Source: Candidatus Aenigmatarchaeota archaeon (GTDB lineage: Archaea > Aenigmatarchaeota > Aenigmatarchaeia > QMZP01 > JAFGSV01). From it: a stretch of DNA of 64,000 nucleotides. The notes beneath the pieces are model-generated. The model ran no database searches, was not told the DNA's origin, and saw nothing but the letters and a program-made list of their open reading frames with translations. This document shows positions 17,642 through 60,085 of this stretch, in pieces; position 1 is the stretch's first letter, and each line of letters starts with the position of its first letter. The stretch covers positions 30,961-94,960 of the forward strand of contig JAFGFG010000001.1 of assembly GCA_016931255.1 (NCBI GenBank), given 5' to 3'. Both the position numbers and the translations under genes were made by a program.

Positions 17642-17729
17642 TAGAGTCTTCAAGAAGTCCTGCAATCAGTCTTTTTGTTCTGCATTTTTTCGAGGATGAT
17701 TAAACTTCCTTAAGCGAATTAAAAGTTCG

Positions 17730-18446
17730 TTAAGACATTAATATCGCTTTTAGCTTTTCAATTGAAAGCATTTCTCCTCTTTTGCGATGAATCATTTTGT
17801 GGCAGTTCGAGCATAATGGAGAGACCTTCTCCAAAGCCTCGTCCAGCGTTGTCTGGCTACCAGTTATCTCCATCTCGTGAACTGGTTCCTTGTGATGTAT
17901 TTCTATGAAGCCCTTCCCGTGTTCACCATATCTGTTCTCGAAGTCGAAACCACAAGCTTCGCACGGCAACCTGCCGCTGTTCCTATTTTTGAACTCCATC
18001 ACCGCAACGCTCCTGAGCTTCTGGGAACGCTCATGCTGGCTGGTCGTCCTTACCTCCATCGCACCTTCCTCTATGATGATGCCCGAGAAATCGGCATCTA
18101 TCACCTTTTCTATCTGGCGTTTCTTGAAGCCCTGAGACTTCATAGACTCAAAAACGGGCTTGTTTTCCTCCACATAACCCAATCTCCTGTCGGTGATTTT
18201 CCATATGCCGCCAGCGATATATTCGGCAAGCCCACTGATTGTCAGAGTGTCGTGAGATTTCAGGTTTCTGACTTTCTGGCTGAAATATGTATCATTCCTG
18301 TTGCTTATTGTCTCTGCGTCATGCCCTGTCGGTTGCAACCTCTTCCCAAGCTCACTTATCAATTGGGCAGTAGTCACGTTGTTCGGATAATGACTTTTCA
18401 TTATCTCAAGGGCAGGAATAATCAAGTCCTGCTCGGTGTAAACCAT
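17730..18446 (-). CDS. HNH endonuclease with N-terminal DNA-binding-like domain (putative restriction enzyme)
   Basis: 238 aa with a C-terminal HNH/zinc module, CEACGFDFENRYGEHGKGFIEIHHKEP...CSNCHKMIH. It is convergent with the methyltransferase. Confidence 0.8.
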   Translation of the reverse strand: MVYTEQDLIIPALEIMKSHYPNNVTTAQLISELGKRLQPTGHDAETISNRNDTYFSQKVRNLKSHDTLTISGLAEYIAGGIWKITDRRLGYVEENKPVFESMKSQGFKKRQIEKVIDADFSGIIIEEGAMEVRTTSQHERSQKLRSVAVMEFKNRNSGRLPCEACGFDFENRYGEHGKGFIEIHHKEPVHEMEITGSQTTLDEALEKVSPLCSNCHKMIHRKRGEMLSIEKLKAILMS

Positions 18447-18480
18447 AATTTTTATATGTGACGGATATTTAAAATCTAAT

Positions 18481-18819
18481 ATGGGAAGAGCCGCAAATTA
18501 CGGTGCAGACAGAGGGAAACTGAAAGCGTGGGCAGACCAAGAGAGGCGTGTCCTCAACAACGAGAATGTGATAATCAAGGACGGGAGTGGAAGATACCCA
18601 GAATGTTTTGAAATACTGCCTTACGGATGGTGCCCGAAGCTAGAGGAAATTCCAGAGGACCCAAAAGATGTGCCGAAGACCTGCAAGGCTTGTCAGGAGT
18701 TCCTCAAAAGCAAGTTCTACGAGAAGTACTTCATGTTAGATAATTACAGGAAGAAGTTGGAACGCATGAAGTCTCTGGGTTTACCAACGATGATAGTGAA
18801 CGAGAGAAAAAGAGATTAA
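18481..18819 (+). CDS. hypothetical protein
   Basis: 112-aa ORF in the AT-rich island with scattered Cys (CPKL...CKAC). Confidence 0.45.
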   Translation: MGRAANYGADRGKLKAWADQERRVLNNENVIIKDGSGRYPECFEILPYGWCPKLEEIPEDPKDVPKTCKACQEFLKSKFYEKYFMLDNYRKKLERMKSLGLPTMIVNERKRD

Positions 18820-19024
18820 ATGAGACCCAGTGTTATTGGAATCTTTTGTCAACAGCTTATGCGAAAATTTCTCAGTTTAACTATTCTCTGACAATTAACG
18901 TAATGCACAGGTTCGTAACGTTACATTCCTTTTCTTAAAACTTTCTTATGTGACTACAAGACGATATTTTGTAGTCACACACGATTACCAAAGGGGAACA
19001 GATGTTAATTGAGGAGAACCTTAA

Positions 19025-19732
19025 ATGAGACAGAGGAAAAGAGTGGTCACGAATTCTAAAAGTCAGATGAGATTGCAAGAAAGACTTGCCAAAAAATACT
19101 GTTCGCTGCACCATTTCATTGATGTAAGCGGCGGTCCCCCACAGAAGACCGCTTTCGGCCTCTTCAGTATTAACAGGAATTCCATGAACAGGGTCTACAA
19201 GGACTTCAGAAAAACATTTCCCAGATATGTCGGCAAAAGGGCCAAGGCATCCAGTCTCGATGAAGAGGAACTCATCAAAATAATAGACTTTTTCAATTCC
19301 AACGGGATTATGATGCGTGCATCTTGCGTAGAGAATGGTGACTGGTTGTTCTATAAAAGGACTTATGAACACAGAAAAAAATACTTCGAAGAAAGAATTT
19401 ATGGGATGATATACTGCACTATACTGAAAACCGTGTCTTATAGGGATTATCCATATCCGGTCATCATGTGTAAGGAGAGATATCTGAGAAGGCCAGAGAC
19501 TGCATTGGACATATGCAAAGAATTCTCGAATTATAGCGGGTATCATTTTAGTCTTTCTTTCGGTGACAGGAAAGTTACGGATGAACTGAGATTTGCGGAC
19601 TTTATAGCTGGTTCCGCATTCAAAATAAACAGAAAAAAACTAGAAAATTTTGAAAATTTTCACTTCATAGATATCAAACTGCCACGAATTTATTGTCTAA
19701 AAGCATTCAATTACCATAAAAGTGAAATATGA
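19025..19732 (+). CDS. DUF3800-like protein
   Basis: 235 aa with an N-terminal FIDVSG (resembles the DUF3800 iDESG motif). The C-terminal LRFADFIAGS resembles the ADxxAG motif. Confidence 0.5.
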   Translation: MRQRKRVVTNSKSQMRLQERLAKKYCSLHHFIDVSGGPPQKTAFGLFSINRNSMNRVYKDFRKTFPRYVGKRAKASSLDEEELIKIIDFFNSNGIMMRASCVENGDWLFYKRTYEHRKKYFEERIYGMIYCTILKTVSYRDYPYPVIMCKERYLRRPETALDICKEFSNYSGYHFSLSFGDRKVTDELRFADFIAGSAFKINRKKLENFENFHFIDIKLPRIYCLKAFNYHKSEI

Positions 19733-20383
19733 CGGATGTCATCCGAATATAAGAGCTCCAAGGAATTATGGAGTTCATCTTATACCGTTGATCCAAAGGA
19801 GGTGATAGAATGGCCTTATAACCATTAATCACCTAATCAATACTTATACGGGAGCATTTAAAAGGCTTTTGGTGACCCTAAAGTGTTTATTTCTACCATT
19901 TTACAGCGAAGTCGCGAGAAGTAAACAGAAAGAATAAGCAAAACTTATTAAGAAAACTTACAAGAAAGAAATATGACGTATGTTCTTATCGATGGAAAAA
20001 CCTTCCAGGAAACCAATTTTGAGAAGGAAGAGGAAGATAGCACCGATAAAGCTTGACAATGGTAAAAAGGGAATTGCGCCCCAGTCCCCAAGATATACAA
20101 CTTACGATAAGTTAACAAAGGCAAAGAGTATAAGTGAACTTTGGTAGTTTAGGGTATACCAGTGAAATGTGGGCTAAAACGACGCTTTACTCGTGACCAA
20201 TTAACCAATAGCGCCGATTAGTATCGGTTTCCGTCAATCTTTCTCTTGGTCTCCTGTAGATATCCGGACATTTCTACCCAAAACGTTACAAAATGGATAT
20301 TATGTCACCTCCAATGTTCCAATCCCCAGCCAAAAGTAACGTTTTAGTTACTATTATTTAAGAGGGTAACGTAAATATAGAAT

Positions 20384-20959
20384 ATGGGAACCACAGAAAA
20401 CGAATCGGCGTATTATCTGACTCAGGATGAAATCCGGAAAATTATTACAGTTGCCGGAAGTTTAAGGGACAGAGCAATATTCAAGATTCTTGCAAGGACT
20501 GGAATGAGACGGGGAGAATTAAGAGATCTGGAAGTGAGAGATATAGATTTTGAGAAAAGAAGATTATTCATAAGATCCGGAAAAGGTGATAAAAGCAGAA
20601 CAGTTCCAGTTGACCAGGATACGCTACAGGATGTCCGGTTTTATCTGGGTGAGCGAAAAGAAGGAAAATTGATACAAAGCAACAAGGCAGAATCGATATC
20701 CCTGAAGCAAATCAACGAGATATGTGCTAAGGCTGGTAAGGTAGCAGGAGTAAGACACCCGAATCCTGCAAAAGAAGATATAAACCCCCATCTTTTCAGG
20801 CATTCATTTGCTCGCATGATGCTGGAAAAGGGTATGAGAATGGAAGAGGTCCAGAAGGTTCTTGGACACTCCAGTATCAAGACAACAATGGATGTTTATG
20901 GTACTCCTGGTATGGAAAGTGTGCAGAGCAGCTACGATAGGATAATGGAAGACGTCTGA
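20384..20959 (+). CDS. short tyrosine recombinase/integrase (catalytic domain only)
   Basis: 191 aa with ARTGMRRGEL (Arg-I), HLFRHSFA (HxxR) and LGHSSIKTTMDVYG (His, Tyr). There is no core-binding domain. Confidence 0.85.
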   Translation: MGTTENESAYYLTQDEIRKIITVAGSLRDRAIFKILARTGMRRGELRDLEVRDIDFEKRRLFIRSGKGDKSRTVPVDQDTLQDVRFYLGERKEGKLIQSNKAESISLKQINEICAKAGKVAGVRHPNPAKEDINPHLFRHSFARMMLEKGMRMEEVQKVLGHSSIKTTMDVYGTPGMESVQSSYDRIMEDV

Positions 20960-21433
20960 CTAGCCGCTGATTTCTTCAAGCCTCTTGCGCCATTCGCCGA
21001 TTCTGCTGTTAGTCTTCCTGGAAGCGAAATCCATCAGCATGGAATTGAATCTTTCAGCCCGTCTGATAAGACTTTTCACTTCTTCCCTGGTAATTTCGAA
21101 ATCCACGTAATACTGCTTGTCAATCCGCTCGTTTTTGGCATATGAAATGTCTGAATTGTCAATACCGTAAACCTCTTTCAGTATTATTATGACTGCCGCA
21201 TGGTTCTCGCACTTTATGCCTGTCCCGAAAAGAATGGCGGATGCTGCATGATACATGCTGTAGTATGCCATGACTACCGACTCCTCGAGGTGTCCGCTTC
21301 TGAGGAGTATATTAGCTGATTCCGTGTTGCTTCCGGATTTTGCCAAGTACGACTTCATCACATTGTCGCTCGGCTCGACCATCTCGAGCTTCCCTTCCTT
21401 TTTCAGTTTACTTAAAAATCCGATTCTTCTCAT
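20960..21433 (-). CDS. HEPN-domain protein (toxin partner of MNT)
   Basis: 157 aa, helical and HEPN-like (LEESVVMAYYSMYHAASAILF...). It lies downstream of and overlapping the nucleotidyltransferase gene. Its stop abuts the integrase stop. Confidence 0.65.
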   Translation of the reverse strand: MRRIGFLSKLKKEGKLEMVEPSDNVMKSYLAKSGSNTESANILLRSGHLEESVVMAYYSMYHAASAILFGTGIKCENHAAVIIILKEVYGIDNSDISYAKNERIDKQYYVDFEITREEVKSLIRRAERFNSMLMDFASRKTNSRIGEWRKRLEEISG

Positions 21434-47103: not shown

Positions 47104-49089
47104 TTAATATGAAGCCTCTGCAGATGAGACGCCTTTAGATTTTTTTACTGTTGTTATGCTGTCTGCCGCATCCTCCATTGCAGTGTCATGCGTCACCACT
47201 ATCATCTGCGGGAGGACGCTGGTCTTTCTGAGAACTTCTATCAGGTCCTGCCTCCTCTGCTCGTCCAGGAATATAGTCGGTTCGTCAAGCATGACTGTCT
47301 CTGCACTTGTCCCTGCAAGCGTCCTTGCTATACCGAGCCTCAGCGCGAGTGCTGCTGCAACACGCTCTCCCCCGCTTATCATATCGGATGTCGTCTTCCC
47401 TCCGGGTCCGTAAAGCGTTATGTCGTAATCATCTGACAGTGAAATATCCGAATATTCGAAGTTGAACTCCCTGAAGAATTCCTGTATGTGCTTCTCTATC
47501 ACAGGCACCGAGCGTTTCCTGAGCTCCAGCTGAAGTCCTGACTTATCGAACAGCGACCTTATCTCATTCAGTATCCCTATGAACTCCACAAGACTGCTGT
47601 GCTCTTCCTTCCTTCTCGTGAGCAGTTCCATGTCCTTCTTAAGGCTGTTTTCAGTGTTCTCAAGCCCCTGAAGATTTCCTTCCTGCTTTCCGTATGCCTC
47701 CCTGAGCGCTGATACCTCTGACCTGAGTTCTTCCGAAGATTTCCTGATGGCAGCTGCGTCTTTTCCCGCGTTCTCAAGCCCTGATATCTTCTTTTCCAGC
47801 AACGCAAGCCCTGCTTTCAGTTCATTGATTTTCCCGGTGGATTCTTTCAATGAACCAAGGAACACATCTTTCCGGGAGAGTGTTATCCTCAGCTCATTAA
47901 GCCTCTTCTCCCTCGCCTCGTTCTTCAGCGCATCCGCTTTCAGTTTATCCATCTTCCCTGTCAGAGATGACCTCTCACAGGAATTCACATCAAGCTGCTT
48001 CTTTATGGCAGATGACTTCTCACGCTTTTCAGCGGACATCTTCCTCAGGTGTTCTTCATCGAGTGCGGAGCCGCACATGGGACATGTCTTCTTCTCAGCG
48101 AGGTCTTCTGCGCTGAACTCTTCCAGTTCTTCAAGCCTGCTCCTAAGTGAGCCTTCTGACACGTCGAGCCTGCTGAGCGATTTAGATATCTCAGCTGCTT
48201 TTCTTTCATGATCATTCTTCCAGCTTTCAGGGAAATTCTTCGAGATGGATGATTCCTCCTTCTCAGCTGCTGCAATGGAATCCAGATGCATCCTGCTGTC
48301 TGACATGCGCTGGCTCTCTGCATTAAGCCTTGACGCAATGTCCTCCTTTCTCACCATGAGGCCGTGGTAGGTCGTCTCATCAGCGGAAAGCCTAAGCAAG
48401 CCTGCCTCGGCCTTCTTCAGCTTCTCCCCGGTTGCTGAGATGCTTTTCTGTGTCTTCTTCATTCGTTCCCTGACTTCTTCAATGCCTGATTTTGCTTCCT
48501 CAAGCCGTTTCTCTGTCTCGCCTGACCTCATTATCTCTCCCTCTGCGAGTGTTTTCCTTTCCCTGTATATTTCTGTCAGTGAACGCATGCCTTCCCATAC
48601 CTTCTCAACAGACTCTATACCAAGAAGCCTTCCTATGATCTGCTTCTTTCTTGACGGTGTTTCCGTGAGCAGTTTCTCTATTTCCCCCTGCCTGACATAT
48701 ATGGCATTCATGAAGATGTGCCTGTCTATGCCCAGTATGGATGATATCTCTTCATCCACCCCGCTGTCGCCTGACCTCATCTCCTTCTCTGTGCCGTCAA
48801 TGATAAACAGATTCGAGTCCGTTGCGTTCTTAGTTCTCTTCCTGATGACCCTGTATGCCTTCCCGTGGCTCGTGAACACAACGCTGACTGACATCTCCTT
48901 CTGCCCCCTCCTGACAAGGTCTTCAAGGTTTCCGGAATACTCCTTGAAAAGCGCGAATGATATGGCTTCGAATATGCTGGTCTTTCCTGCGCCGTTCTGC
49001 CCGAGTATGACATTTATTCCCGGCCCGAATTTCACTTCCGTATCTGCGTGCGATTTGAAATTCCGGAGCCTCACCGAATTTATTATCAT
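47104..49089 (-). CDS. rad50: DNA double-strand break repair ATPase Rad50 (short form)
   Basis: 661 aa with Walker A GQNGAGKTS and a coiled coil carrying the zinc hook CPMCGS. It also has the signature SGGERVAAALALRLG and Walker B VMLDEPT. Confidence 0.9.
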   Translation of the reverse strand: MIINSVRLRNFKSHADTEVKFGPGINVILGQNGAGKTSIFEAISFALFKEYSGNLEDLVRRGQKEMSVSVVFTSHGKAYRVIRKRTKNATDSNLFIIDGTEKEMRSGDSGVDEEISSILGIDRHIFMNAIYVRQGEIEKLLTETPSRKKQIIGRLLGIESVEKVWEGMRSLTEIYRERKTLAEGEIMRSGETEKRLEEAKSGIEEVRERMKKTQKSISATGEKLKKAEAGLLRLSADETTYHGLMVRKEDIASRLNAESQRMSDSRMHLDSIAAAEKEESSISKNFPESWKNDHERKAAEISKSLSRLDVSEGSLRSRLEELEEFSAEDLAEKKTCPMCGSALDEEHLRKMSAEKREKSSAIKKQLDVNSCERSSLTGKMDKLKADALKNEAREKRLNELRITLSRKDVFLGSLKESTGKINELKAGLALLEKKISGLENAGKDAAAIRKSSEELRSEVSALREAYGKQEGNLQGLENTENSLKKDMELLTRRKEEHSSLVEFIGILNEIRSLFDKSGLQLELRKRSVPVIEKHIQEFFREFNFEYSDISLSDDYDITLYGPGGKTTSDMISGGERVAAALALRLGIARTLAGTSAETVMLDEPTIFLDEQRRQDLIEVLRKTSVLPQMIVVTHDTAMEDAADSITTVKKSKGVSSAEASY

Positions 49090-50225
49090 TTATTGCCTCC
49101 AAGCCTGCTGAGGAACTTCTCGGATTCCTCTATTGCAGCTTCTGTATTCCCTTCGGAGAGCATCCTGAAAATCGCTGATGCCAGCCTTGATTTTTCGTTC
49201 TTCCCCAGTATCTCGTCTATTATATCATCTATCTGGTTCGGACTGAATGAACGCTCTACTTTAAGGCCTTTGACAGTCTCTGCTGAATAGTTCATCCTTA
49301 ATGTGAGAACAGCGCCTGAAAGTTTCTCCTGGAGGATGTCATGGACTGCAGATTTCTCCAATGATCCTTCCTTCACATCGAGATACAGCATGGGCTTCCT
49401 GCTGAGCTGGCTGAGCCTTCCGAGAAGCTCTTCCGTAAACTTTTCAAGCGATCCTGAATCAGCCTTCTCCCTTAATATCTCCCTTTCAAGCGGTATGTCA
49501 ACATTCTGGACCGACGGTTCGTCCCCGTGCATGTCAACCAGCGTGAATCCCTTGCCTCTCCTCTTGTAATCGTCTATCTCATTCGCGCTCCATAGGTCTG
49601 CTGAGCCGGGATATACCAGCTTCCCCAGGCCGAAGTTCTCGGTTATGCGCGCGTGGATATGCCCCATCGCGTAGTAGCTGAAATTATTCGGGATGTCATC
49701 CATGCTTATCTCGTAGCCGTTCTTGAGATGCCTGTCTGTTCCCTGGTGCATCATCAGGATGGATTTCTTTTTGCCTGCTTTCTGCGAAACTATCTTCAGT
49801 TGCTCCTTCAGCATGGAATCCTGATGCTTCGGATAGTAAGGCACACCTCCGATGAAAAGGTCACTGTGCATGACGAACGGGTCTTCCTCAGTCAGGAGGC
49901 GAACGCCCATGTCCCTGAAAAGTACCTGAGGGGGCAGCGAGCCGCGCCTGAAGAGCATGTCATGGTTTCCTGTTATTGCATAAACCGGTATTCCCTTTTC
50001 CCTGAGCTTCGCGAAGCATCTCTGCGCCACCCAGAGCGCCCTTGGCGGAGGCTTGGGGACATCGAAGAGGTCTCCTGTATGCAGGACAAAGTCCGGTCGC
50101 TCCTCTATTATCTTCCTTACGGCGTTCTCGAATGCCCTGTAGAAATCCGTCTCCCTTTCATATATTCCGTACTGCCTGAAGCCGAGATGCGTGTCCGAAA
50201 AATGTACGAATTTCATGGTAAACAC
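49086..50225 (-). CDS. mre11: DNA double-strand break repair nuclease Mre11
   Basis: 379 aa with phosphoesterase motifs HFSDTHLG, HTGDLFD, GNHD and GHIH. It overlaps the rad50 start. Confidence 0.9.
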   Translation of the reverse strand: MFTMKFVHFSDTHLGFRQYGIYERETDFYRAFENAVRKIIEERPDFVLHTGDLFDVPKPPPRALWVAQRCFAKLREKGIPVYAITGNHDMLFRRGSLPPQVLFRDMGVRLLTEEDPFVMHSDLFIGGVPYYPKHQDSMLKEQLKIVSQKAGKKKSILMMHQGTDRHLKNGYEISMDDIPNNFSYYAMGHIHARITENFGLGKLVYPGSADLWSANEIDDYKRRGKGFTLVDMHGDEPSVQNVDIPLEREILREKADSGSLEKFTEELLGRLSQLSRKPMLYLDVKEGSLEKSAVHDILQEKLSGAVLTLRMNYSAETVKGLKVERSFSPNQIDDIIDEILGKNEKSRLASAIFRMLSEGNTEAAIEESEKFLSRLGGNK

Positions 50226-51781: not shown

Positions 51782-51816
51782 TTTCTCAGTCCGCAATGCC
51801 TGAAAGCTTTTAAGGA

Positions 51817-51838
51817 ATAATGAACATATGTCCATTAT
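51817..51838. promoter_or_regulatory. 22-bp palindrome (1 mismatch) abutting the DUF134 start codon, candidate operator
   Basis: ATAATGAACAT|ATGTCCATTAT. It is near-identical to the site at 53542..53563. Confidence 0.5.
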
Positions 51839-52288
51839 ATGGCAAGACCCAAAAAAACGAGGATGATTCACAGCGAACCCGAGATAACATACTTCAAGCC
51901 GGCAAGGGTAGCCCTCAGGGACCTTCGCGAGAATTCCCTCACACTGGAAGAAATCGAGGCAGTCAGGCTGAAGGACCTCGACGGTCTCGACCAGGAGGAA
52001 TGCGCGAAAAGGATGAATGTCTCCAGAACAACGTTTCACAGGGTTCTCGGATTGTCAAGAAAGAAGATCGCTGATGCCCTTCTGAACGGAAAGGCTCTCA
52101 GGATAGGCGGAGGCGACTACATGCTCGGAAGGGGAGAGAAGGGCGGCAGGGGATTCGGTCCCGGAGGCGAATGCGTCTGCCCCGAATGCGGTCGGAAGGT
52201 TCCCCATGACAGGGGCATTCCTTGTTTCGAGTACAAATGTCCTGACTGCGGCACACAGATGACGAGGACTTCTCCGGATAAAGGATGA
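51839..52288 (+). CDS. DUF134 (UPF0251) DNA-binding protein with C-terminal zinc ribbon
   Basis: 149 aa with MARPKKTRMI...YFKP and LTLEEIEAVRLKDLDGLDQEECAKRMNVSRTTFHRVL (sigma-70 r4-like HTH). The zinc ribbon is CPECG...CPDCG. Confidence 0.8.
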   Translation: MARPKKTRMIHSEPEITYFKPARVALRDLRENSLTLEEIEAVRLKDLDGLDQEECAKRMNVSRTTFHRVLGLSRKKIADALLNGKALRIGGGDYMLGRGEKGGRGFGPGGECVCPECGRKVPHDRGIPCFEYKCPDCGTQMTRTSPDKG

Positions 52289-52716
52289 CAGCCATGAACA
52301 ATGAAGTGACTGATGCTTTCGGGAAGTCCGGAAAATCACTCTGCAACAGCCTTCCTGTACTTGCAGGGGCTGTGCTTCTCGTAGGACTCGCCAGCTCACT
52401 TGTGCCCCATACATTCTACAGCAGCATCTTCAGCCATAATCCGCTGATAGACTCCCTTATAGGAAGCACTGCAGGAAGTTTCCTTGCGGGAAATCCTCTG
52501 ACCAGCTATGTTCTCGGGGGCGAGATGCTCAGCCAGGGCGTAAGCCTTCTTGCAGTCACGTCTTTCCTTGTCGCGTGGGTTACGGTTGGGATGGTGCAGC
52601 TTCCTGCTGAATCCATACTTCTTGGACGGAGGTTTGCTGTCCTGAGGAACATTCTGAGCTTTGTGTTCTCCATCCTTGTTGCATTCACGACTGTTTACAT
52701 AACGGGGTTGTTATGA
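52285..52716 (+). CDS. predicted permease, first half
   Basis: 143 aa, polytopic, with an ATGA overlap upstream. It overlaps the next half-permease gene by 4 nt. Confidence 0.5.
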   Translation: MTAMNNEVTDAFGKSGKSLCNSLPVLAGAVLLVGLASSLVPHTFYSSIFSHNPLIDSLIGSTAGSFLAGNPLTSYVLGGEMLSQGVSLLAVTSFLVAWVTVGMVQLPAESILLGRRFAVLRNILSFVFSILVAFTTVYITGLL

Positions 52717-53219
52717 TGGGCGAAAACAGCCACAAAAGCGTGTATTTCCTTATTTCTGTTGTTGCACTTTATTTTCTGACAGCTGTATTCAGGTGGGATG
52801 CGGTTGTGCAATCTCTCGTCTTCTCCTATAACATCGCGCTCAATGTGATTCCTGTATTCGCAGCCATCTTCCTTATAATGGCCGGGTTCAATTACTTCAT
52901 ATCGCCGCAGAGCGTGAAGAAGCACATAGGGCGTTCATCAGGCATCAGGAGATGGGTTTTCGCTGTTGCCGGAGGCATAATATCCACAGGCCCGATTTAC
53001 ATGTGGTATCCAATGCTCAAGGACCTGAAGAAGCACGGGGTCAGCTACGGTTTCATCGCAGCATTCCTGTACAACAGGGCAGTCAAGATACCCCTCCTGC
53101 CTCTTATAATAGTCTATTTTGGCCTGAAATACACGATTGTGCTCACAGCCGTGATGATTGCAGCTTCCCTTGCGCAGGGCATCATTTTTGAAGCACTTGA
53201 AGGAGGTGAATTCATATGA
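52713..53219 (+). CDS. predicted permease, second half
   Basis: 168 aa, polytopic, and translationally coupled on both sides. Confidence 0.5.
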   Translation: MMGENSHKSVYFLISVVALYFLTAVFRWDAVVQSLVFSYNIALNVIPVFAAIFLIMAGFNYFISPQSVKKHIGRSSGIRRWVFAVAGGIISTGPIYMWYPMLKDLKKHGVSYGFIAAFLYNRAVKIPLLPLIIVYFGLKYTIVLTAVMIAASLAQGIIFEALEGGEFI

Positions 53220-53524
53220 TAAAAGCTGTCTGCTCAAAAGGAAAGGACATAACATCGGAAGTCAGCGAAGTCGGCGCAAGGGCTGCTTATTTCCTGATAT
53301 TCGACGACAAAAAGCTCGTCAATGCCATAAAGAACCCGTTCAGCTCAGGAGGTGGAGGTGCTGGTTACAGCGCTGCTGAGATGCTTTCTGACGAAGGGGT
53401 GAAGATGGTCATCAGCGGAAAAGTCGGACCGAATATGGTCACTGCGCTGAAGGACAAAGGCATGACGTACAGAGAGGTCCATGGAGTCAGTGCTGAAAAA
53501 GCTGCAGAAATACTATTAGACTGA
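53216..53524 (+). CDS. NifX/NifB-C-terminal-domain-like (dinitrogenase FeMo-cofactor-binding family) protein 1
   Basis: 102 aa with YFLIFDDKK...GGGGAGYSAAEMLSDEGVKMVISGKVGPNMVTALKDKG. Confidence 0.7.
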   Translation: MIKAVCSKGKDITSEVSEVGARAAYFLIFDDKKLVNAIKNPFSSGGGGAGYSAAEMLSDEGVKMVISGKVGPNMVTALKDKGMTYREVHGVSAEKAAEILLD

Positions 53525-53541
53525 TGGAAGTTTTATAAACT

Positions 53542-53563
53542 ATTATGAACATATGTTCATTAT
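53542..53563. promoter_or_regulatory. 22-bp palindrome (perfect 16-bp core), candidate operator copy 2
   Basis: ATTATGAACAT|ATGTTCATTAT lies 25 nt upstream of the DUF5320 ATG. It sits exactly at the G+C break. Confidence 0.5.
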
Positions 53564-53588
53564 GTTTAATGTAAAGGGGGTGTAAATT

Positions 53589-53912
53589 ATGCCAGGAGGA
53601 AATGGAACAGGTCCAGCAGGAATGGGCCGAATGACAGGAAGAGGAATGGGTTACTGCAATGGTTTTCAGGCTCCGGGATTCGCTAGTGCGGGTTTTGGAA
53701 GAGGCCGGGGAAACAGATTTTGGGCAAGAAACACAGGACTTCCGGGATGGCAAAGAGCCAATGATTACCAAGCATATCCCGTAGTACAGCCAACAAAAGA
53801 ACAGGAAATTCAGTACCTTGAAGAAGAAAAAGAAATGCTAAAACAGGAACTTGAGTCAATCAAGCAGAGTATAAAATCAATAGAAAGCAAAATGATGGAA
53901 ATCAAAAAATAA
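53589..53912 (+). CDS. DUF5320-like protein (Gly/Arg/Met-rich N-terminus plus coiled coil)
   Basis: 107 aa with MPGGNGTGPAGMGRMTGRGMGYCNG, then the coiled coil EQEIQYLEEEKEMLKQELESIKQSIKSIESK. Confidence 0.7.
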   Translation: MPGGNGTGPAGMGRMTGRGMGYCNGFQAPGFASAGFGRGRGNRFWARNTGLPGWQRANDYQAYPVVQPTKEQEIQYLEEEKEMLKQELESIKQSIKSIESKMMEIKK

Positions 53913-53929
53913 GAGAAAGGGGTAGTAAC

Positions 53930-54388
53930 ATGAAGATAGCAGTAAGTTCGACAGGTCAGGGACTAAAAAGCCAGTCAAGTCAGGTTTTCGGAAGATGTCC
54001 TTGGTTTGTCATAGTAGAAACCGACGGAAAGAAGATAATAGCTCATAAGGATGTTCAGAATAATGCAGCGATACAGGCTGCCGGTGCAGGAATAGCATCA
54101 GCGCAGTTAGTAGGAAATGAAGGTGCTACAGTCGTCATATCAGGCGCTGTTGGTCCCAGAGCATTCAGCGTTTTTCAGCAAGTCGGAATAGAAGCCTATC
54201 TGGGAACCGGAGGAACCGTTGAAGAGAATGTAATGCTTTTCATTAGCGGAAAACTTTCCAAAATAAACACTCCGGGAGTGATGGGCACAGGAATGGGAGG
54301 AGGCTTTAATTCTGGTACAGGCCGAGGCATGGGATTAGGCCGAGGCGGAGGATTTGGAGCAGGAAGAGGAATGGGGAGACGGCAATAA
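53930..54388 (+). CDS. NifX-like protein 2 with Gly/Arg/Met-rich C-terminal tail
   Basis: 152 aa with MKIAVSSTG...VFGRCPWFVIVE...GATVVISGAVGPRAFSVFQQVGIEAY. The tail is GTGMGGGFNSGTGRGMGLGRGGGFGAGRGMGRRQ. Confidence 0.8.
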   Translation: MKIAVSSTGQGLKSQSSQVFGRCPWFVIVETDGKKIIAHKDVQNNAAIQAAGAGIASAQLVGNEGATVVISGAVGPRAFSVFQQVGIEAYLGTGGTVEENVMLFISGKLSKINTPGVMGTGMGGGFNSGTGRGMGLGRGGGFGAGRGMGRRQ

Positions 54389-54413
54389 TCTGCATCCATA
54401 AGGATTGATATGA

Positions 54414-54743
54414 ATGAAAATTGCAATACCACTAGTAGAAAATAATGGAATAGAATCAAGGATACATCCGCATTTCGGTCACATCCAGTTCATAGGTGTT
54501 TACAATTCATCGGACAAAAAATTTGAGATAGTTGATGTAAAACCCACTGATGGATGTTCTCCTGTAGCAGCAATTGAAAATCTCAAGGTAGATGCCATAT
54601 ACACATTCGGTATGGGCAGCAGGGCTATCGAACTTTGCAAAAGAATGAAAATAAAACTCAAAACAGGCACATTCACAACAGTTAAAGAAGTCTCTGAAAA
54701 TCTCGATAAACTGAACGACCTTGAAGAAAGTTGCGGACACTGA
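54414..54743 (+). CDS. NifX-like protein 3
   Basis: 109 aa with MKIAIPLVEN...HFGHIQFIGVY...VDAIYTFGMGSRAIELCKRMKI. Confidence 0.65.
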   Translation: MKIAIPLVENNGIESRIHPHFGHIQFIGVYNSSDKKFEIVDVKPTDGCSPVAAIENLKVDAIYTFGMGSRAIELCKRMKIKLKTGTFTTVKEVSENLDKLNDLEESCGH

Positions 54744-54777
54744 AATTATCCATATACGGAAATGCAGTAAAATGTGT

Positions 54778-55611
54778 ATGAAGATAGTTGTAACAGGAGG
54801 TAAAGGTGGGACTGGAAAGTCAACTGTAGCCACTGCATTATCATCAGAGCTTTCAAGTAAAGGAAAGGTACTGCTCTTTGATGCGGATGTAGACTGCCCG
54901 AATGACCATCTCATACTTTCTACAAAAATAAAGAAAATAAAGACAGTGACTCAGGTCATTCCAAAATGGGATTTCAGCAAATGTGTGAAATGCGGTAGAT
55001 GTTCCGAAGTCTGCAAGACCAGTTCAATTGTTCAGATAAAGGAAAAGTATCCCATATTTGTTCCAGAACAGTGCAGCGGCTGTAAAGCTTGTATGATAGC
55101 GTGTCCGACCGGTGCCATAGGAAAAACACATAAAGACATAGGTGTAGTATACGAAGGCAAGAACGGTAATGTTGACATGATAAGCGGGGAACTCAAACCA
55201 GGTGAACCGGTCTCAGAATTTGTCGTCACTGCAGCAAAGGACATTGTAAATGAAAAAAGCAAAGATTATGACTTCATATTAACTGATACAGCCGCTGGTA
55301 CACATTGTGATGTCATAACAGCACTTCTTGATAACGACATTGCACTTGCAGTTACTGAGCCCACTCCACTAGGTGCCCATGATCTGGAACTAATACTGAA
55401 ACTCTCAAAAATACTTGAAGTACCTGTAAAGATAGTGCTCAACCGATCTGATATAGGTGACGCATCTCTTATTGAAGAAATAGCCGAGAAGTACGAGACT
55501 GAGATAATATCAAGAATACCTTACAGTAAAGCCATACTTGAGAGTTATTCGAATGGTGATGCCATAAAAAATATTCATATAGAAAAACTAGCCAGAGATG
55601 TGATGAGATGA
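54778..55611 (+). CDS. MinD/ParA-superfamily P-loop ATPase with inserted 2x[4Fe-4S] ferredoxin domain (1)
   Basis: It has MKIVVTGGKGGTGKST and DADVDCPN. The ferredoxin cysteines are CVKCGRCSEVC and CSGCKACMIACP. The ORF-track start is 54721. Confidence 0.85.
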   Translation: MKIVVTGGKGGTGKSTVATALSSELSSKGKVLLFDADVDCPNDHLILSTKIKKIKTVTQVIPKWDFSKCVKCGRCSEVCKTSSIVQIKEKYPIFVPEQCSGCKACMIACPTGAIGKTHKDIGVVYEGKNGNVDMISGELKPGEPVSEFVVTAAKDIVNEKSKDYDFILTDTAAGTHCDVITALLDNDIALAVTEPTPLGAHDLELILKLSKILEVPVKIVLNRSDIGDASLIEEIAEKYETEIISRIPYSKAILESYSNGDAIKNIHIEKLARDVMR

Positions 55612-56267
55612 AGATTACAGTAATTTATGATAACAATGCAAAAGACGGTCTTAAGTCCGGATGGGGATTTTCATGTCTGATAGAGAGTGACAAAAACATA
55701 CTTTTCGATTGTGGAGACAATGAGAAATCACTTCTTTATAACATTAAAAAGCTGGCGATTGACCTGAAAACAATTGACATGATTATATTATCCCATGAAC
55801 ACTGGGATCATACAGGAGGGCTGGCTGATATACTAAAATCAGCAGAAAATGTAACAGTGGTCCTTCCAAAATCATTTTCAGATGAAATGAAAGTTGCAAT
55901 AAGTAAACATGCAAAAATCATAGAAATTACTGAATGCCGGGAATTATCTGAAGATGTTTTCAGTATAGGTGAATTGAATGGTCACGGGCAGCCAAATGAA
56001 CAGGCACTGGCACTAAAAACTTCTAAAGGTGTTATGGTCATAACAGGGTGTGCTCATCCAGGGATTTCTGAAATACTCAAAGAGGCTGAAAAGCATGGAA
56101 AAATATACGGAATATTGGGTGGTTTTCACGACTTCTCTGATTTTGATGTGCTTGAAGGAATTGAACTTCTGGCACCATGCCACTGTACGAAACATCTCAA
56201 GGAAATACAGGATACTTATCCGGAAAATTACAGAAAAATCAATGCGGGGAGTGTGATTGAATTATGA
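55608..56267 (+). CDS. MBL-fold metallo-hydrolase
   Basis: 219 aa with SHEHWDHTGG (HxHxDH). There is a 4-nt overlap on both sides. Confidence 0.8.
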   Translation: MKITVIYDNNAKDGLKSGWGFSCLIESDKNILFDCGDNEKSLLYNIKKLAIDLKTIDMIILSHEHWDHTGGLADILKSAENVTVVLPKSFSDEMKVAISKHAKIIEITECRELSEDVFSIGELNGHGQPNEQALALKTSKGVMVITGCAHPGISEILKEAEKHGKIYGILGGFHDFSDFDVLEGIELLAPCHCTKHLKEIQDTYPENYRKINAGSVIEL

Positions 56268-57046
56268 AGACTGTTTATGGCCCCGTGCCTTCAAGAAGGC
56301 TTGGTATTTCACTTGGAATTGACCCAGTGTGTGCTACAAAAGGCAATCGTATTTGCAGCTTCGATTGCACATACTGCCAATTACATACAATGGGACCAGT
56401 CAGCCATACCACAATCAGAAAAGTATTCGTAAAAACAGAAGATGTGGAAAATGATTTGAAAGAAGCACTTAAACACACATCGCCGGATATCATAACAATA
56501 TCAGGAAGTTCTGAACCTACGCTTGCACTCAATCTGGGAGAAATCATAAAATCAGTAAAAATAATTACTGAGCTTCCTGTAGCGATTCTGACAAACTCTT
56601 CATTACTTTCGAAAGAGAATGTCCGGAAAGATTTGTACAAACTGGACCATGTAATTGCAAAACTCGACGCGTCTGAGTTCGATATTTTCAAAAAAATTAA
56701 CCGCCCTGCTGATGGAATAAGACTTGGGGAAATCATAAACTCGCTCAGATTATTCAGAAGTGAATATCAAGGTAAGATGTCGCTTCAGATGATGTTCATA
56801 GAAGATAATATTAGTCAGGCAAAGTCCCTGGCAGATCTTGCAGTAAGCATAAAACCAGACGAAGTGCAGATTGATACTCCACTGAGATATTCACCTGTTG
56901 CTCCTCTTCCAAAAGATACGCTCGATGAAATAAGACAAATTTTCACGAAAAGCGGTCTTAACGCAATTTCAATATATGATATGAAAAAGCCTGATACAAA
57001 GCCTGTAAACATGAAGGAAACATTATTGAGGAGACCGGAACTATGA
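56264..57046 (+). CDS. radical SAM protein (subfamily unknown)
   Basis: 260 aa with YGPVPSRRLGISLGI and CSFDCTYCQ (CxxxCxxC). Confidence 0.8.
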   Translation: MKTVYGPVPSRRLGISLGIDPVCATKGNRICSFDCTYCQLHTMGPVSHTTIRKVFVKTEDVENDLKEALKHTSPDIITISGSSEPTLALNLGEIIKSVKIITELPVAILTNSSLLSKENVRKDLYKLDHVIAKLDASEFDIFKKINRPADGIRLGEIINSLRLFRSEYQGKMSLQMMFIEDNISQAKSLADLAVSIKPDEVQIDTPLRYSPVAPLPKDTLDEIRQIFTKSGLNAISIYDMKKPDTKPVNMKETLLRRPEL

Positions 57047-57939
57047 AAAACATAACAATTGTTTCAGGTAAGGGCGGTGTTGGGAAATCGATGATTGCGT
57101 CTTCAATCTCAGTCATGCTTTCAAGAGAGATGAAGGTGGTAGTTGCAGATTGTGATGTCGATGCACCAGACCTTGGATTGAGTCTGGGGCTTAATGATAA
57201 TGATTATGAGTCATGGAATGAAATAACAACAAACGAGAAGGCTGTACTGGTCGATAAGAAATGCACCGGATGCAGAAAATGCGTGGATGTTTGTACGTTT
57301 GGTGCAATTAAATGGGATGAAAAAAGAAAGAAACCCGTATTCAATAGCTTGTTTTGTGAAGGATGCGGTTCATGTGAACTCGTTTGCCCGGAAAATGCAA
57401 TAGAATTAAAAGAAGTAAATAACGCTGTGATAGGCATCGGTAAGACAGCATACGGCTTTCCGATAATCACCGGCCAGCTGAAGATGGGTGAATCCGGTTC
57501 AGGAAAAGTAATATTCATCGTCAAGGAAACGGCAATGAAAATGGCTGAAAGAGAAAGAGCCGAGATAATGCTTACAGATGCAGCAGCCGGTATAGGATGT
57601 CCTGTAATAGCGTCAGTGAGGGGTTCTGATTATGTGATAGCTGTTACAGAGCCTACACCATCGGCACTAAGTGATGTTATCAGAATGCTTGACATAGTGA
57701 AGCATTTCGATATAGAGCATGGTCTTGTAATAAATAAATTTGACTTAAATCCGGAATTCAGTGAAAAAATAGAGAAATTTGCAAAAAGTATGGGTATTTC
57801 TGTATTAGGAAAGATTCCTTATGACAGGAAATTCGTGGATGCAATTGTCAACAGGAAGCCGGCAGTGATTTATGACAAGCAGTTTGAGAATGTATTCAAT
57901 GAAATAATTGACAATATGAAGAATGCAATCGGAATCTGA
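57043..57939 (+). CDS. MinD/ParA-superfamily P-loop ATPase with inserted 2x[4Fe-4S] ferredoxin domain (2)
   Basis: 298 aa with VSGKGGVGKS and DCDVDAPD. The ferredoxin cysteines are CTGCRKCVDVC and CEGCGSCELVCP. Confidence 0.85.
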   Translation: MKNITIVSGKGGVGKSMIASSISVMLSREMKVVVADCDVDAPDLGLSLGLNDNDYESWNEITTNEKAVLVDKKCTGCRKCVDVCTFGAIKWDEKRKKPVFNSLFCEGCGSCELVCPENAIELKEVNNAVIGIGKTAYGFPIITGQLKMGESGSGKVIFIVKETAMKMAERERAEIMLTDAAAGIGCPVIASVRGSDYVIAVTEPTPSALSDVIRMLDIVKHFDIEHGLVINKFDLNPEFSEKIEKFAKSMGISVLGKIPYDRKFVDAIVNRKPAVIYDKQFENVFNEIIDNMKNAIGI

Positions 57940-57960
57940 TGAAATGAATGCGGTGCAATC

Positions 57961-58467
57961 ATGGGAAATATTAAAATCAAGTGTAAAATATGTGGAAAAA
58001 TAATGTGCACAGATGATATCTACGTCGTGGACGGTGAAAACGTATGCAAGATGTGCATGCATGAAAACAAAAAACCTTTTATGATTTATCCAATAGGATA
58101 TGTTAAGAATGACTTGAAAAGGAAATCCGGTTCATTCGGAAACATCGGAAAAGAAAAAGTCTCACGAATAGAACTTTTTTCCTCGCAAATGCCTTTTATG
58201 TACATGATTAATGATGAAAAACATCTCACAATAGTATATTATTTGAACAAGAGAAATCCCATAAGATCGGTATTCAAAAGAGGGCTGGACGGAAAAGAAG
58301 TCGGCATCTTTGCCTCAAGAACCCCGGACAGGCCATCCGGAATTGCAATTCAGGAAGTCACGCTTTTGAAAGTCGACGGAACAACACTGTATGTTGAAGG
58401 GCTTGATGCAATCAACGACAGCCCGGTACTAGACATAAAGCTGGGACGCAAAAGCATAGACGGATAA
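57961..58467 (+). CDS. TrmO/YaeB(TsaA)-like domain protein with N-terminal zinc ribbon
   Basis: 168 aa with CKICG...CKMC, then IYPIGYVKN, ASRTPDRPSGIAI and SPVLDIK. Confidence 0.7.
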   Translation: MGNIKIKCKICGKIMCTDDIYVVDGENVCKMCMHENKKPFMIYPIGYVKNDLKRKSGSFGNIGKEKVSRIELFSSQMPFMYMINDEKHLTIVYYLNKRNPIRSVFKRGLDGKEVGIFASRTPDRPSGIAIQEVTLLKVDGTTLYVEGLDAINDSPVLDIKLGRKSIDG

Positions 58468-58926
58468 TTATCTGAAACATTTCATCATTTTCTTGTTTAC
58501 GGTAACATTGTTAGTCTTTCCTAAAGACTCCTTGGAAACCACATCTTTTCTTGAGAGTTTTTCAAGTATTCTGAAAACTTTAACTTTGGAAAGATTTGTC
58601 TCTCTTACTATCCGGGCTTGAGAAGCTTTACCTCCACTATTTATCAACATCTTCATAACCTTCATCTCGTCTGATTCAAATAAGGAGAGAAATACATTTC
58701 CATCTATATTCTCTTCATGGAATGGATTGAAAAAGTAGTATACCAGAGTTCCTATCAAAAGCCCGACCGAACCAAGGAATGGTATAAAAAGTGTTATGGG
58801 TATTAAACAACCGCATACATTTCCTGAATCTATCTGCATCTGGACATAAAATGAACTTATACCTATTATAAGAACGAACCCGGCTATCAGTATCATACCA
58901 ATAATGAATTTTTTCTGGTATTCCAT
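58468..58926 (-). CDS. membrane-tethered winged-helix regulator
   Basis: 152 aa with two N-terminal TM helices. The wHTH is MKVMKMLINSGGKASQARIVRETNLSKVKVFRILEKLSRKDVV. Confidence 0.6.
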   Translation of the reverse strand: MEYQKKFIIGMILIAGFVLIIGISSFYVQMQIDSGNVCGCLIPITLFIPFLGSVGLLIGTLVYYFFNPFHEENIDGNVFLSLFESDEMKVMKMLINSGGKASQARIVRETNLSKVKVFRILEKLSRKDVVSKESLGKTNNVTVNKKMMKCFR

Positions 58927-58930
58927 GATA

Positions 58931-58971
58931 ATGGTTTCATATTTTGAAACTTAAATTTATATATGGTTTCA
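58931..58971. promoter_or_regulatory. repeated ATGGTTTCA / TGAAAC half-sites in divergent intergenic region
   Basis: ATGGTTTCA occurs at 58931 and 58963, which is 32-bp spacing. An inverted TGAAAC lies at 58945..58950. The region separates the wHTH regulator from the thioredoxin-like lipoprotein gene. Confidence 0.3.
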
Positions 58972-58992
58972 ATCAACTATAATCTGATTTGA

Positions 58993-59379
58993 ATGAAAAA
59001 TCATGTCATCCTTGGAATTGGGATTATTATGCTCATAGTCAGTGGATGCACCACAAGCAATGGCGGAACTGAAGGCAATGTCATAGTGATTTCGGACGGC
59101 GGAACCGTGGACACTGCTATATGCCAGCAGAAGGGGATTGCAGACAAGATAGTTGTGTTCCATTCACCTACATGCCCTGCATGCAGGCAGACCCTGCCCG
59201 TGCTTGAGGAAATAGAAGCAGAATACGATTATGACTTCATGTTCATAGACCTTTCAACTGAAAGGGACGCGGCTGAGGAGCTGGGAATAATGCCCACGCA
59301 CATACCGACAATACTGATAAAGTGCAAGGCATACACGGGTTTCAGGGAAAAATCCGAATTCCTCAGCCTCATGGGGTGA
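58993..59379 (+). CDS. thioredoxin-fold lipoprotein (extracytoplasmic thiol-disulfide oxidoreductase)
   Basis: 128 aa with a lipobox-like LIVSGC. The CxxC active site is HSPTCPACRQ. Confidence 0.7.
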   Translation: MKNHVILGIGIIMLIVSGCTTSNGGTEGNVIVISDGGTVDTAICQQKGIADKIVVFHSPTCPACRQTLPVLEEIEAEYDYDFMFIDLSTERDAAEELGIMPTHIPTILIKCKAYTGFREKSEFLSLMG

Positions 59380-59383
59380 ATAT

Positions 59384-60085
59384 ATGATGTACGGCCTATC
59401 ACTGACAGCAATACTTTCGCTTGCCGCACTGGATGCCATAAACCCGTGCGCAATTGCAGTGCTGACACTCATGCTTATATCCATACTCACGTACAACCCA
59501 AAAAAAAGGAGAAACATCCTGCTTGCCGGAATGGCTTTCACCATGTCCGTATTCGTCATGTATATGTTCTACGGGCTTGTAATAATACGCTTCCTGCAGG
59601 TCATGAGCACAATAGCATACATAAGGGAAATGCTTTACGGCGTCCTCGGTGCATGTGCGGTTGTGCTGGGCATTCTGAACATCAAGGATTTCTTCTGGTA
59701 TAAGCCAGGAGGTTTGCTTACGGAGATGCCGATGAGGATGAGACCAACTGCGAAAAAAATAATAAACGGCATAACAACACCACGGGGAGCTTTTCTTGTG
59801 GGCGCGTTCGTGACTGTTTTTCTCCTTCCGTGCACCATAGGTCCGTACATAATAGCCGGTGGCATACTTTCCGCGCTTGAGCTCATGGCCGCTGTTCCAT
59901 GGCTTCTTCTGTACAACATCATATTTGTTCTGCCCATGATTGGGATAACGCTGGCTGTTTACGTAGGCGTCAGAAAGGTCGATGATGTCTCAGGATGGAA
60001 GGACAGGAACATCCGTCATCTCCACCTGATCTCAGGAATAATAATAATGCTGCTGGGCATCGGAATGCTTATGGGTTGGCTGTAA
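59384..60085 (+). CDS. CcdA/DsbD-family transmembrane thiol-disulfide electron transporter
   Basis: 233 aa, polytopic. Conserved membrane cysteines are LDAINPCAIAVL and LLPCTIGPY. Confidence 0.7.
   Translation: MMYGLSLTAILSLAALDAINPCAIAVLTLMLISILTYNPKKRRNILLAGMAFTMSVFVMYMFYGLVIIRFLQVMSTIAYIREMLYGVLGACAVVLGILNIKDFFWYKPGGLLTEMPMRMRPTAKKIINGITTPRGAFLVGAFVTVFLLPCTIGPYIIAGGILSALELMAAVPWLLLYNIIFVLPMIGITLAVYVGVRKVDDVSGWKDRNIRHLHLISGIIIMLLGIGMLMGWL

Follow-up and report, generated by a model that had tools for sequence, protein, structure and literature searches.

A palindrome of 22 bp occurs twice, on the promoters of two successive operons, in a stretch of 64,000 nucleotides (hereafter the window; contig JAFGFG010000001.1, positions 30,961 to 94,960) of a Candidatus Aenigmatarchaeota archaeon. 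The likely explanation, based on sequence comparison, is that this palindrome is the operator of the DUF134/UPF0251 protein encoded at 51839-52288, which would repress its own operon as well as an iron-sulfur operon resembling those of the orange protein (ORP) and of IssA. The evidence comprises the recurrence of the palindrome in other genomes, its position on archaeal and bacterial promoters, and the covariation of its bases with two residues of the DUF134 protein.

Palindromic sites in the window and in other genomes

The first site, O1 (ATAATGAACATATGTCCATTAT, 51817-51838), has one arm mismatch, and the second, O2 (ATTATGAACATATGTTCATTAT, 53542-53563), contains a perfect 16-bp core, ATGAACATATGTTCAT, at 53545-53560. 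The two 22-mers differ at two positions and are thus identical at 20 of 22. The ATG of the DUF134 open reading frame (ORF) starts at the base directly 3' of O1, and 25 nt (53564-53588) separate O2 from the ATG of the DUF5320 gene (53589). On both strands of the 64 kb, the core is present as one exact copy and one copy with one mismatch, and no copy with two or three mismatches is observed on either strand. With a weight matrix derived from other genomes, O2 scores 32.3 bits and O1 29.7 bits, the next-best 22-mer of the window reaching 11.3 bits. As shuffled DNA of 1.2 Mb yields only 3 matches of at least 12 bits, two matches of about 30 bits within 1.7 kb, both on promoters, are not due to chance. 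The 11.3-bit candidate (58848-58869, AAAATGAACTTATACCTATTAT) lies inside the 5' part of the ORF 58468-58926 on the minus strand and was judged to be probably a chance match. A preliminary description of this DNA had given both sites with their coordinates, the arm mismatch, the 16-bp core and the 20/22 agreement, had placed the end of O1 at the base before the DUF134 ATG and O2 25 nt before the next transcription unit, and had reported no further copy; direct reading and the matrix scan bear out each of these points.

A protein search returned 703 DUF134 homologs at E ≤1e-5, all with PF02001. From an alignment of the closest homologs, 80 genomic and 80 metagenomic loci were picked (160 loci, 1.2 Mb), the nearest of which are archaeal. 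In a blind search, the best 10+10 inverted repeat of the upstream region had at least eight matching pairs in 79 of 157 regions, against about 8% of shuffled ones, and nearly all of these repeats correspond to the same motif. The symmetric 22-column matrix was built from 56 such sites and used with a threshold of 12 bits. Its consensus is aTTATGrrCATATGyyCATAAt, in which TTATG and CATAA are near-invariant.

At this threshold, the 160 loci contain 141 sites, against 3 in block-shuffled DNA. No more than 200 nt downstream of 128 of the 141 sites lies a DUF134 (88), DUF5320 (33), MinD/Fer4 (6) or NifX-like (1) gene, all of them families that the window encodes as well. The other 13 precede ORFs left unclassified by the reference set, several of which are divergent DUF5320 according to Pfam. 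DUF5320 is thus the second commonest target, with 33 sites for the 41 DUF5320 ORFs of the loci. With regard to the DUF134 homologs, a site is found upstream of 120 of the 158 genes, within 150 nt for 85 of them and within 2.5 kb for 35 more, where it stands at the head of the operon, typically before a DUF5320 gene. Loci with a site comprise 23 of the 30 archaeal and 35 of the 50 bacterial genome loci. The palindrome recurs upstream in DPANN lineages, Methanosarcinales, Thermoplasmatales and Bathyarchaeia among the archaea, and in Dehalococcoidia and other Chloroflexota, Firmicutes and Patescibacteria among the bacteria. The locus of the closest metagenomic relative, L081, exhibits the exact O2 22-mer twice, before a MinD/Fer4-radical SAM-MinD/Fer4 operon and before DUF134-DUF5320. 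Based on this survey, the layout of the window, in which DUF134 and DUF5320 each have a site, follows a general pattern. The preliminary description had named a motif frequent irrespective of context as an outcome that would refute its reading; on these 1.2 Mb the reading was not refuted, as 128 of the 141 sites found in the 160 loci lie upstream of regulon genes.

A second, weaker site is present 23-24 or 28 bp away at 20 of 112 strong sites in the other loci, mostly before DUF5320 (L033, L103, L139, L094, L051, L067 and others), and this pairing suggests cooperative binding of two dimers. No tandem partner stands beside O1 or O2. In the sediment metagenome of the same sample, other contigs match the palindromes alone (19-22 nt) and not their flanks, and therefore other organisms of that sediment carry the same operator. 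The DUF134 genes with no palindrome at all are mostly Firmicutes paralogs, and several of the Firmicutes genes (L079, L074, L027, L039 and L045, including that of Thermoanaerobacterium saccharolyticum) lack ORP-type neighbours as well. The DUF134 family also includes members with other targets.

In archaea and bacteria alike, the sites abut the core promoter. Of 18 strong sites in loci of known archaeal origin, 16 follow a TTWAWAWA box that ends 1-3 nt ahead of them and is usually preceded by cGAAA, and both O1 and O2 obey this spacing rule. The first promoter of the window exhibits the same cGAAA-nn-TTTAWATA layout as strong archaeal sites elsewhere, with its TATA-like box about 28 nt from the DUF134 ATG; at the second promoter, a gap of 2 nt, within the commonest archaeal spacing range, separates the TATA box from O2. 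Contact with the start codon is not peculiar to O1: the site abuts or overlaps it in 14 of the 88 DUF134-proximal sites elsewhere (e.g. L001, L026, L090 and L009). If the TATA box is centred about 26-28 nt upstream of the start, transcription would begin at the 3' edge of each palindrome, and the DUF134 mRNA would therefore be leaderless, the DUF5320 mRNA having a leader of 25 nt.

Among 31 strong bacterial sites, 28 have a TTGACN box, which in 18 cases ends at a distance of 24-25 nt. The layout in these 18 cases consists of a 17-nt spacer, a -10 hexamer and 1-2 nt, followed by the site, which would span +1. Proteins bound at such promoter positions obstruct RNA polymerase in bacterial and archaeal systems alike. 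As the sites occupy obstructing positions in both transcription systems, we call the DUF134 protein a probable repressor. Regulation of the MerR type, with the site inside a 19-20 bp spacer between the -35 and -10 boxes, was rejected, since the spacer is of the normal 17 bp and the site comes after the -10 box. A variant operator of Firmicutes, TTATTGACATATGTCAATAA (L056:5918-5939, L072:5930, L030:187 and L070:5984), has a left half-site that is itself the -35 hexamer TTGACA.

The DUF134 protein and its covariation with the probable operator

The protein encoded at 51839-52288 matches PF02001 with 87.1 bits (cut-off 27), its residues 2-95 covering profile positions 5-96 of 98. Against the NCBIfam equivalog PRK04217, itself named only "hypothetical protein", it scores 65.8 bits, below the cut-off of 115, and is not an equivalog. 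A match to Sigma70_r4_2 of Pfam lies just over the cut-off (27.1 against 25.7 bits). The AlphaFold model has a mean predicted local distance difference test (pLDDT) score of 80.5, rising above 90 for residues 31-90, and the modelled helices 36-47, 52-59 and 63-83 form a three-helix helix-turn-helix (HTH) domain resembling region 4 of sigma-70, in which residues 63 and 67 open the third, or recognition, helix. Foldseek matches this domain to region 4 of the sigma factors E, H and R and to the DNA-binding domain of Bacillus subtilis DeoR bound to DNA, with a root-mean-square deviation of 0.6-1.0 A over 40-50 residues and a template modelling (TM) score of 0.6-0.7 relative to the target. A sequence search of the PDB found no solved DUF134 relative, the best hit being a zinc finger with an E-value of 0.048.

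Downstream of the HTH, a conserved strand region of the form GKA-hydrophobic-R-hydrophobic-GGG precedes a Gly/Arg linker (residues 97-111). The C-terminal domain is zinc-ribbon-like and comprises C112, C114, C117, C129, C134 and C137, arranged as two CPxCG knuckles and two further cysteines; in an alignment, the six residues are invariant in the 32 closest homologs. Gly/Arg-rich low complexity is observed at 52127-52171, which is the DUF134 linker, at 53589-53760 in the N-terminus of the DUF5320 protein and at 54275-54388 in the tail of a PF02579 protein. The homolog P0044 is a fusion in which the N-terminal motif of DUF5320 (Pfam E 2.4e-5) stands between a DUF134 HTH and the cysteine ribbon. 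DUF134 and DUF5320 proteins of Methanosarcina mazei were flagged for the same RG motif in a paper on archaeal G-quadruplex-binding motifs.

When protein columns were compared with operator positions by mutual information, residues 63 and 67 ranked at the top. With sites before other operons of the same locus included, Arg63 is associated with C at position 9 of the half-site in 173 of 174 half-sites and Gln63 with T at that position in 104 of 104. The second association is less strict: His67 goes with A at position 8 in 89 of 96 cases and Gln67 with G in 49 of 56. A third helix type, I-H-Q-S-T-F-Q-R, pairs with a third core, TTATGCATTATAATGCATAA. On a helix-masked neighbour-joining tree, residue 63 changes at least six times by a rough count, and in 125 of 126 proteins the operator changes accordingly. 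With S-R63-T-T-F-H67-R, the window protein predicts TTATGAAC (AAC-type), and both window sites exhibit TTATGAAC. Recognition of a G:C pair by arginine and of an A:T pair by glutamine is the textbook pattern. The rule can be checked with a single mutation, as R63Q is predicted to shift the half-site preference from TTATGAACAT to TTATGAATAT.

Genes predicted to be controlled by the two sites

With operon boundaries inferred from gene spacing, the first operon (51839-53524) comprises four genes joined by overlapping stops and starts, and the second (53589-58467) comprises eight genes that overlap or lie no more than 31 nt apart (Table 1). In the first operon, the two permease ORFs (52285-52716 and 52713-53219) score 30.3 and 16.4 bits, under the curated cut-off of 32.3, and cover complementary halves of the profile. 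The permease-permease-NifX module is found again at other loci, in operons that are likewise preceded by a site.

Table 1 Predicted regulatory elements and genes of the DUF134 locus (positions in the window).
Feature	Position	Strand	Basis or remark
Promoter 1: BRE (B recognition element)-like TGAAAG, then TATA-like CTTTTAAGGA	51801..51816	+	Read directly
Operator O1 (predicted)	51817..51838		29.7 bits; fills the entire interval from TATA box to ATG of the DUF134 gene
DUF134/UPF0251 regulator, 149 aa	51839..52288	+	PF02001
Split predicted permease, two ORFs	52285..53219	+	N and C halves of PF03773 ArsP_1
NifX/NifB-type small protein, last gene of operon 1	53216..53524	+	PF02579, 52 bits
Promoter 2: GGAAG, then TATA box TTTTATAAA	53526..53539	+	Read directly
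Operator O2 (predicted)	53542..53563		32.3 bits; between TATA box and predicted transcription start of the DUF5320 operon
Shine-Dalgarno-like GGGGGTG	53576..53582	+	6 nt before ATG 53589
DUF5320 protein, first gene of operon 2	53589..53912	+	PF17253, 100 bits
Two PF02579 proteins, 53930-54388 and 54414-54743	53930..54743	+	Pfam
MinD/ParA-type P-loop ATPase with two 4Fe-4S ferredoxin motifs	54772..55611	+	Pfam and NCBIfam matches
Metallo-beta-lactamase-fold protein	55608-56267	+	
Radical SAM (S-adenosylmethionine) protein	56264-57046	+	
Second MinD/Fer4 ATPase	57043-57939	+	
TrmO/TsaA-fold protein with N-terminal Cys motif, end of operon 2	57961-58467	+	

The first gene of the second operon encodes a DUF5320 protein with a Gly/Arg-rich N-terminus, which contains one cysteine, and a coiled-coil-like C-terminus; GGAGGTG-like elements also precede DUF5320 genes in other archaeal loci. 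The following protein (53930-54388) is MTH1175-like (PDB 1eo1, E 1.5e-26) and also matches the ORP structure 2wfb (E 6e-12) and PF02579 (72.6 bits). Its C-terminal tail, PGVMGTGMGGGFNSGTGRGMGLGRGGGFGAGRGMGRRQ, is 38 residues long and comprises 18 glycines and 5 arginines, and no acidic residue. An IPR003731/PF02579 domain and a disordered, cationic, Gly-rich tail make up IssA, which stores iron-sulfur as thioferrate in Pyrococcus furiosus (PMC5524996). Judged by its sequence, the 53930-54388 protein is IssA-like in its domain and in its cationic Gly-rich tail.

The combination of a PF02579 orange-protein homolog with two CbiA/ParA proteins carrying 2xFer4, by which the ORP gene cluster is defined (PMC6345978), is found in this operon. 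The two MinD/ferredoxin ATPases exhibit the domain make-up of Orp3 and Orp4, as described in the same paper; the start codon of the first is uncertain, its ORF opening at 54721 with ATGs at 54772 and 54778. The activator of the orp operons in Desulfovibrio is OrpR, which belongs to the sigma-54 enhancer-binding proteins and has a PAS domain with a redox-sensing 4Fe-4S cluster (PMC8359166). No sigma-54 enhancer-binding protein of this type is encoded in the 47-60 kb region of the window, and the promoters are of the archaeal BRE/TATA form.

The metallo-beta-lactamase-fold and radical SAM families recur in site-controlled operons elsewhere. Other genes of such operons encode DUF364/DUF4213 (16 ORFs), NifU, an EncFtn-like ferritin, ZIP, Fur, thioredoxin, rubrerythrin, HypA and an NUBPL/Mrp ATPase. 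DUF364/DUF4213 carries the label "heavy-metal chelation" and has been tied to molybdate uptake in Methanococcus. As read from these predicted functions, the common theme is the handling of metals and metal-sulfur species in anaerobes. Our guess is that a redox, iron-sulfur or thiometallate signal relieves the repression.

The GC content falls to 0.36-0.42 over 53500-59000, which corresponds to the second operon, against 0.47-0.51 on both sides, with the boundary at O2. Horizontal transfer may have brought in the second operon along with its operator. Another low-GC block is found at 16000-21000 of the window. Beyond the second operon, at 58993-60085, a thioredoxin-like ORF with a CPAC motif is followed by a membrane protein of PF11139 (SfLAP). 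No site precedes this pair in the window; at other loci, both families also occur in operons under a DUF134 site. On the minus strand, shortly before the locus, lie a Mre11-like nuclease (49086-50225) and a Rad50-like ATPase (47104-49089), both named from their translations. This pair accords with an archaeal genome, as do the BRE/TATA promoters and the archaeal origin of the nearest DUF134 loci.

Proposed mechanism, alternatives and comparison with known systems

In the mechanism that we propose, a DUF134 dimer would place one sigma-70-region-4-like HTH on each half-site (TTATGAACAT). Since both sites fill the approximately 22 bp from the archaeal TATA box to the transcription start, the bound dimer would leave the TATA-binding protein (TBP) and transcription factor B (TFB) on the promoter and block the recruitment of RNA polymerase or the opening of the DNA. 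At O1, the regulator would repress its own four-gene operon (DUF134, split permease and NifX-like protein). At O2, it would repress the eight-gene operon encoding DUF5320, the IssA/ORP-like PF02579 proteins, the two MinD/ferredoxin ATPases and the metallo-beta-lactamase-fold, radical SAM and TrmO-like proteins. Both operons together would form a regulon with which an anaerobe handles iron-sulfur or other metal-sulfur species. Release of the repressor would follow an inducing signal, which might be perceived by the Cys-rich zinc ribbon, the Gly/Arg segment or a partner protein. The preliminary description had likewise read the two sites as the pattern of an autoregulated repressor and its regulon, and this reading is supported by the conservation of the motif, by DUF5320 as a second target, by the promoter position and by the helix-operator covariation.

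The palindrome could be a true DUF134 operator at which the protein activates transcription or acts in both ways. The functionally analogous orp operons of Desulfovibrio are indeed under the activator OrpR, and some Firmicutes half-sites coincide with the -35 hexamer TTGACA, where some activators act. Nevertheless, most bacterial sites start 1-2 nt past the -10 box, over the predicted +1, the archaeal sites fill the interval from TATA box to predicted start, and a regulator with a site on its own promoter typically represses itself, so we regard activation as unlikely.

The palindrome could also be bound by another regulator, such as a global metal regulator or the DUF7343/TrmB-like HTH protein encoded at 58468-58926, DUF134 being only one of the targets. 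Co-occurrence alone cannot separate a regulator from a regulated gene, and Fur-family genes are present in two site-controlled operons elsewhere. However, the helix residues of DUF134 track the operator bases over three specificity classes, no second DNA-binding family is common to the 160 loci, and the promoter of the HTH gene 58468-58926 bears an inverted repeat of another sequence, which makes a foreign binder quite improbable. This repeat, GTTTCAaaataTGAAAC, is located at 58934-58950 on the minus strand, where it is flanked by a TATA-like ATATATAAATTT and by the ATG of the gene 58926-58468, whose product is a membrane-anchored HTH protein (PF24034 DUF7343, TrmB-like). From its sequence and position, it looks like a second, unrelated autoregulatory operator.

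A role as an RNA or DNA hairpin, be it a terminator of the first operon, a processing site or a translational element, could be considered for O2, which lies 17 nt past the final stop codon of the first operon and can form a 6-bp hairpin (-6.6 kcal/mol, z-score -2.6). O1, however, folds no better than shuffled sequence (-3.9 kcal/mol, z-score -0.6), neither site is followed by a T-run, and the predicted transcription start falls downstream of most of each site. In addition, base identity (TTATG...CATAA) is conserved beyond what pairing demands, many sites are asymmetric, e.g. TTATGGACATAGGTTCATAA, and no part of the window matches an Rfam family. A scan for sigma-70 promoters and terminators, uninformative for an archaeal locus, found no terminator at O1 or O2. 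A hairpin is therefore very improbable. Finally, chance repeats or the ends of a mobile insertion can practically be dismissed: the GC content does drop from about 0.48-0.51 to 0.36-0.42 exactly after O2, where the low-GC block of 53.5-59 kb starts, but the sites flank the first operon and not this block, no copy lies at its far end, the same sequence is found on promoters in more than 100 unrelated loci, and horizontal transfer of the second operon with its operator is compatible with repression by DUF134.

Several points weigh against repression by the DUF134 protein as proposed here. The Foldseek E-values are weak (0.05-0.3), since only 40-50 residues align. In other lineages, DUF134 proteins exhibit a different C-terminal zinc ribbon with an RG-rich tail, or none; as the C-terminal domain differs or is absent between lineages, a universal role as sensor is excluded for it. 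Presence of DUF134 was the criterion by which the loci were selected, so that the association of the site with DUF134 is partly built in; the associations with DUF5320 and MinD/Fer4 and the promoter position are independent of this selection. Moreover, 56 of the 141 sites seeded the matrix, and 37 of the 158 homolog genes have no site under it, some of them exhibiting variant palindromes. The tree of proteins of about 90 residues is noisy, which makes the switch count rough, and the covariation counts are inflated by shared ancestry. One metatranscriptome of the same study contains no reads from the locus.

A bolder reading, which we consider rather doubtful as a whole, would make DUF134 an ancient master repressor, common to Archaea and Bacteria, of an anaerobe-specific system for storing and distributing iron-sulfur (thioferrate-like) or thiometallate species. 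DUF134 would then sense the anionic metal-sulfur load directly through its cationic Gly/Arg segment and Cys-rich ribbon, and a like Gly/Arg segment would form the IssA-like tails and the N-terminus of DUF5320. The latter would be a paralogous "sensor tail without HTH", buffering the signal or antagonising the repressor, and the near-unchanged operator would have been re-fitted, as the system passed between the domains, from a place behind the TATA box to one behind the -10 box.

DUF134/UPF0251 (COG1342) is widespread in anaerobic archaea, Chloroflexota, Firmicutes and candidate phyla. In 2025-2026, Pfam labelled it "unknown function" and NCBIfam "hypothetical protein". The literature found on DUF134 and DUF5320 consists of incidental mentions, namely a mutation table and a list of RG-rich proteins. 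No description of a binding site or function of either family, or of a DUF134 regulon, was found in the open literature; a regulon database outside this search may contain a prediction. In kind, the proposed system is an ordinary one, namely an HTH repressor that controls its own gene through a palindrome on the core promoter. What is new is the family, the motif, the recognition rule and a conserved regulon with a near-identical operator across both prokaryotic domains. For DUF134, the analysis supplies a precise predicted binding motif, a recognition rule (Arg63-C, Gln63-T), a conserved regulon and a proposed mechanism. In addition, it suggests which regulator may serve the ORP/IssA-type metal-sulfur clusters outside the deltaproteobacteria, OrpR being the only one known so far, and offers a clean case of one operator-regulator pair on archaeal and bacterial promoter architectures alike. 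The motif can be used by annotation pipelines to delimit the regulon in thousands of metagenome-assembled genomes.

Among the closest known systems is OrpR with the orp operons of Desulfovibrio vulgaris (PMC8359166, PMC6345978). Both exhibit a dedicated adjacent regulator with conserved cysteines, palindromic sites before two operons, and an anaerobe-specific cluster of PF02579 proteins and MinD-like ATPases with two 4Fe-4S motifs. The window ATPases are likened to Orp3 and Orp4 by domain make-up and not by homology to DVU2103/DVU2104. OrpR is said to be restricted to deltaproteobacteria, and the ORP system may be of archaeal origin (PMC8359166). In contrast to OrpR, which binds far upstream, the DUF134 protein has only 149 residues, its site lies on the core promoter, and it is found in archaea and non-proteobacterial anaerobes. 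With regard to IssA, the 53930-54388 protein shares the IPR003731/PF02579 (MTH1175-like) domain followed by a cationic Gly-rich tail, but this tail is shorter and of another sequence, and the likeness concerns a target gene and not the palindrome.

The DNA-binding domain of DUF134 resembles region 4 of sigma-70 and extracytoplasmic function (ECF) sigma factors and the DeoR domain (PDB 2h27 and 7bhy) in its compact three-helix HTH. Unlike sigma factors, DUF134 is free-standing, without regions 2 or 3, would recognise a 2-fold symmetric site of 20-22 bp instead of a single -35 element, and is present in archaea. To our knowledge, archaea have no sigma factors. Tfx of Methanothermobacter is a small archaeal regulator with a sigma-region-4/LuxR-like HTH, tied to the operon of the molybdenum formylmethanofuran dehydrogenase; its family is not PF02001, and we know of no relation between its binding site and the DUF134 palindrome. 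MDR1, Phr, NrpR and some members of the TrmB family are archaeal repressors that bind between the TATA box and the start. The DUF134 operator resembles theirs in being palindromic and placed directly after the TATA box, over the predicted start, and the mechanism to be expected is a block of RNA polymerase recruitment. DUF134 belongs to a different family and, unlike theirs, its operator is near-unchanged from archaea to bacteria, where it is reused after the -10 box.

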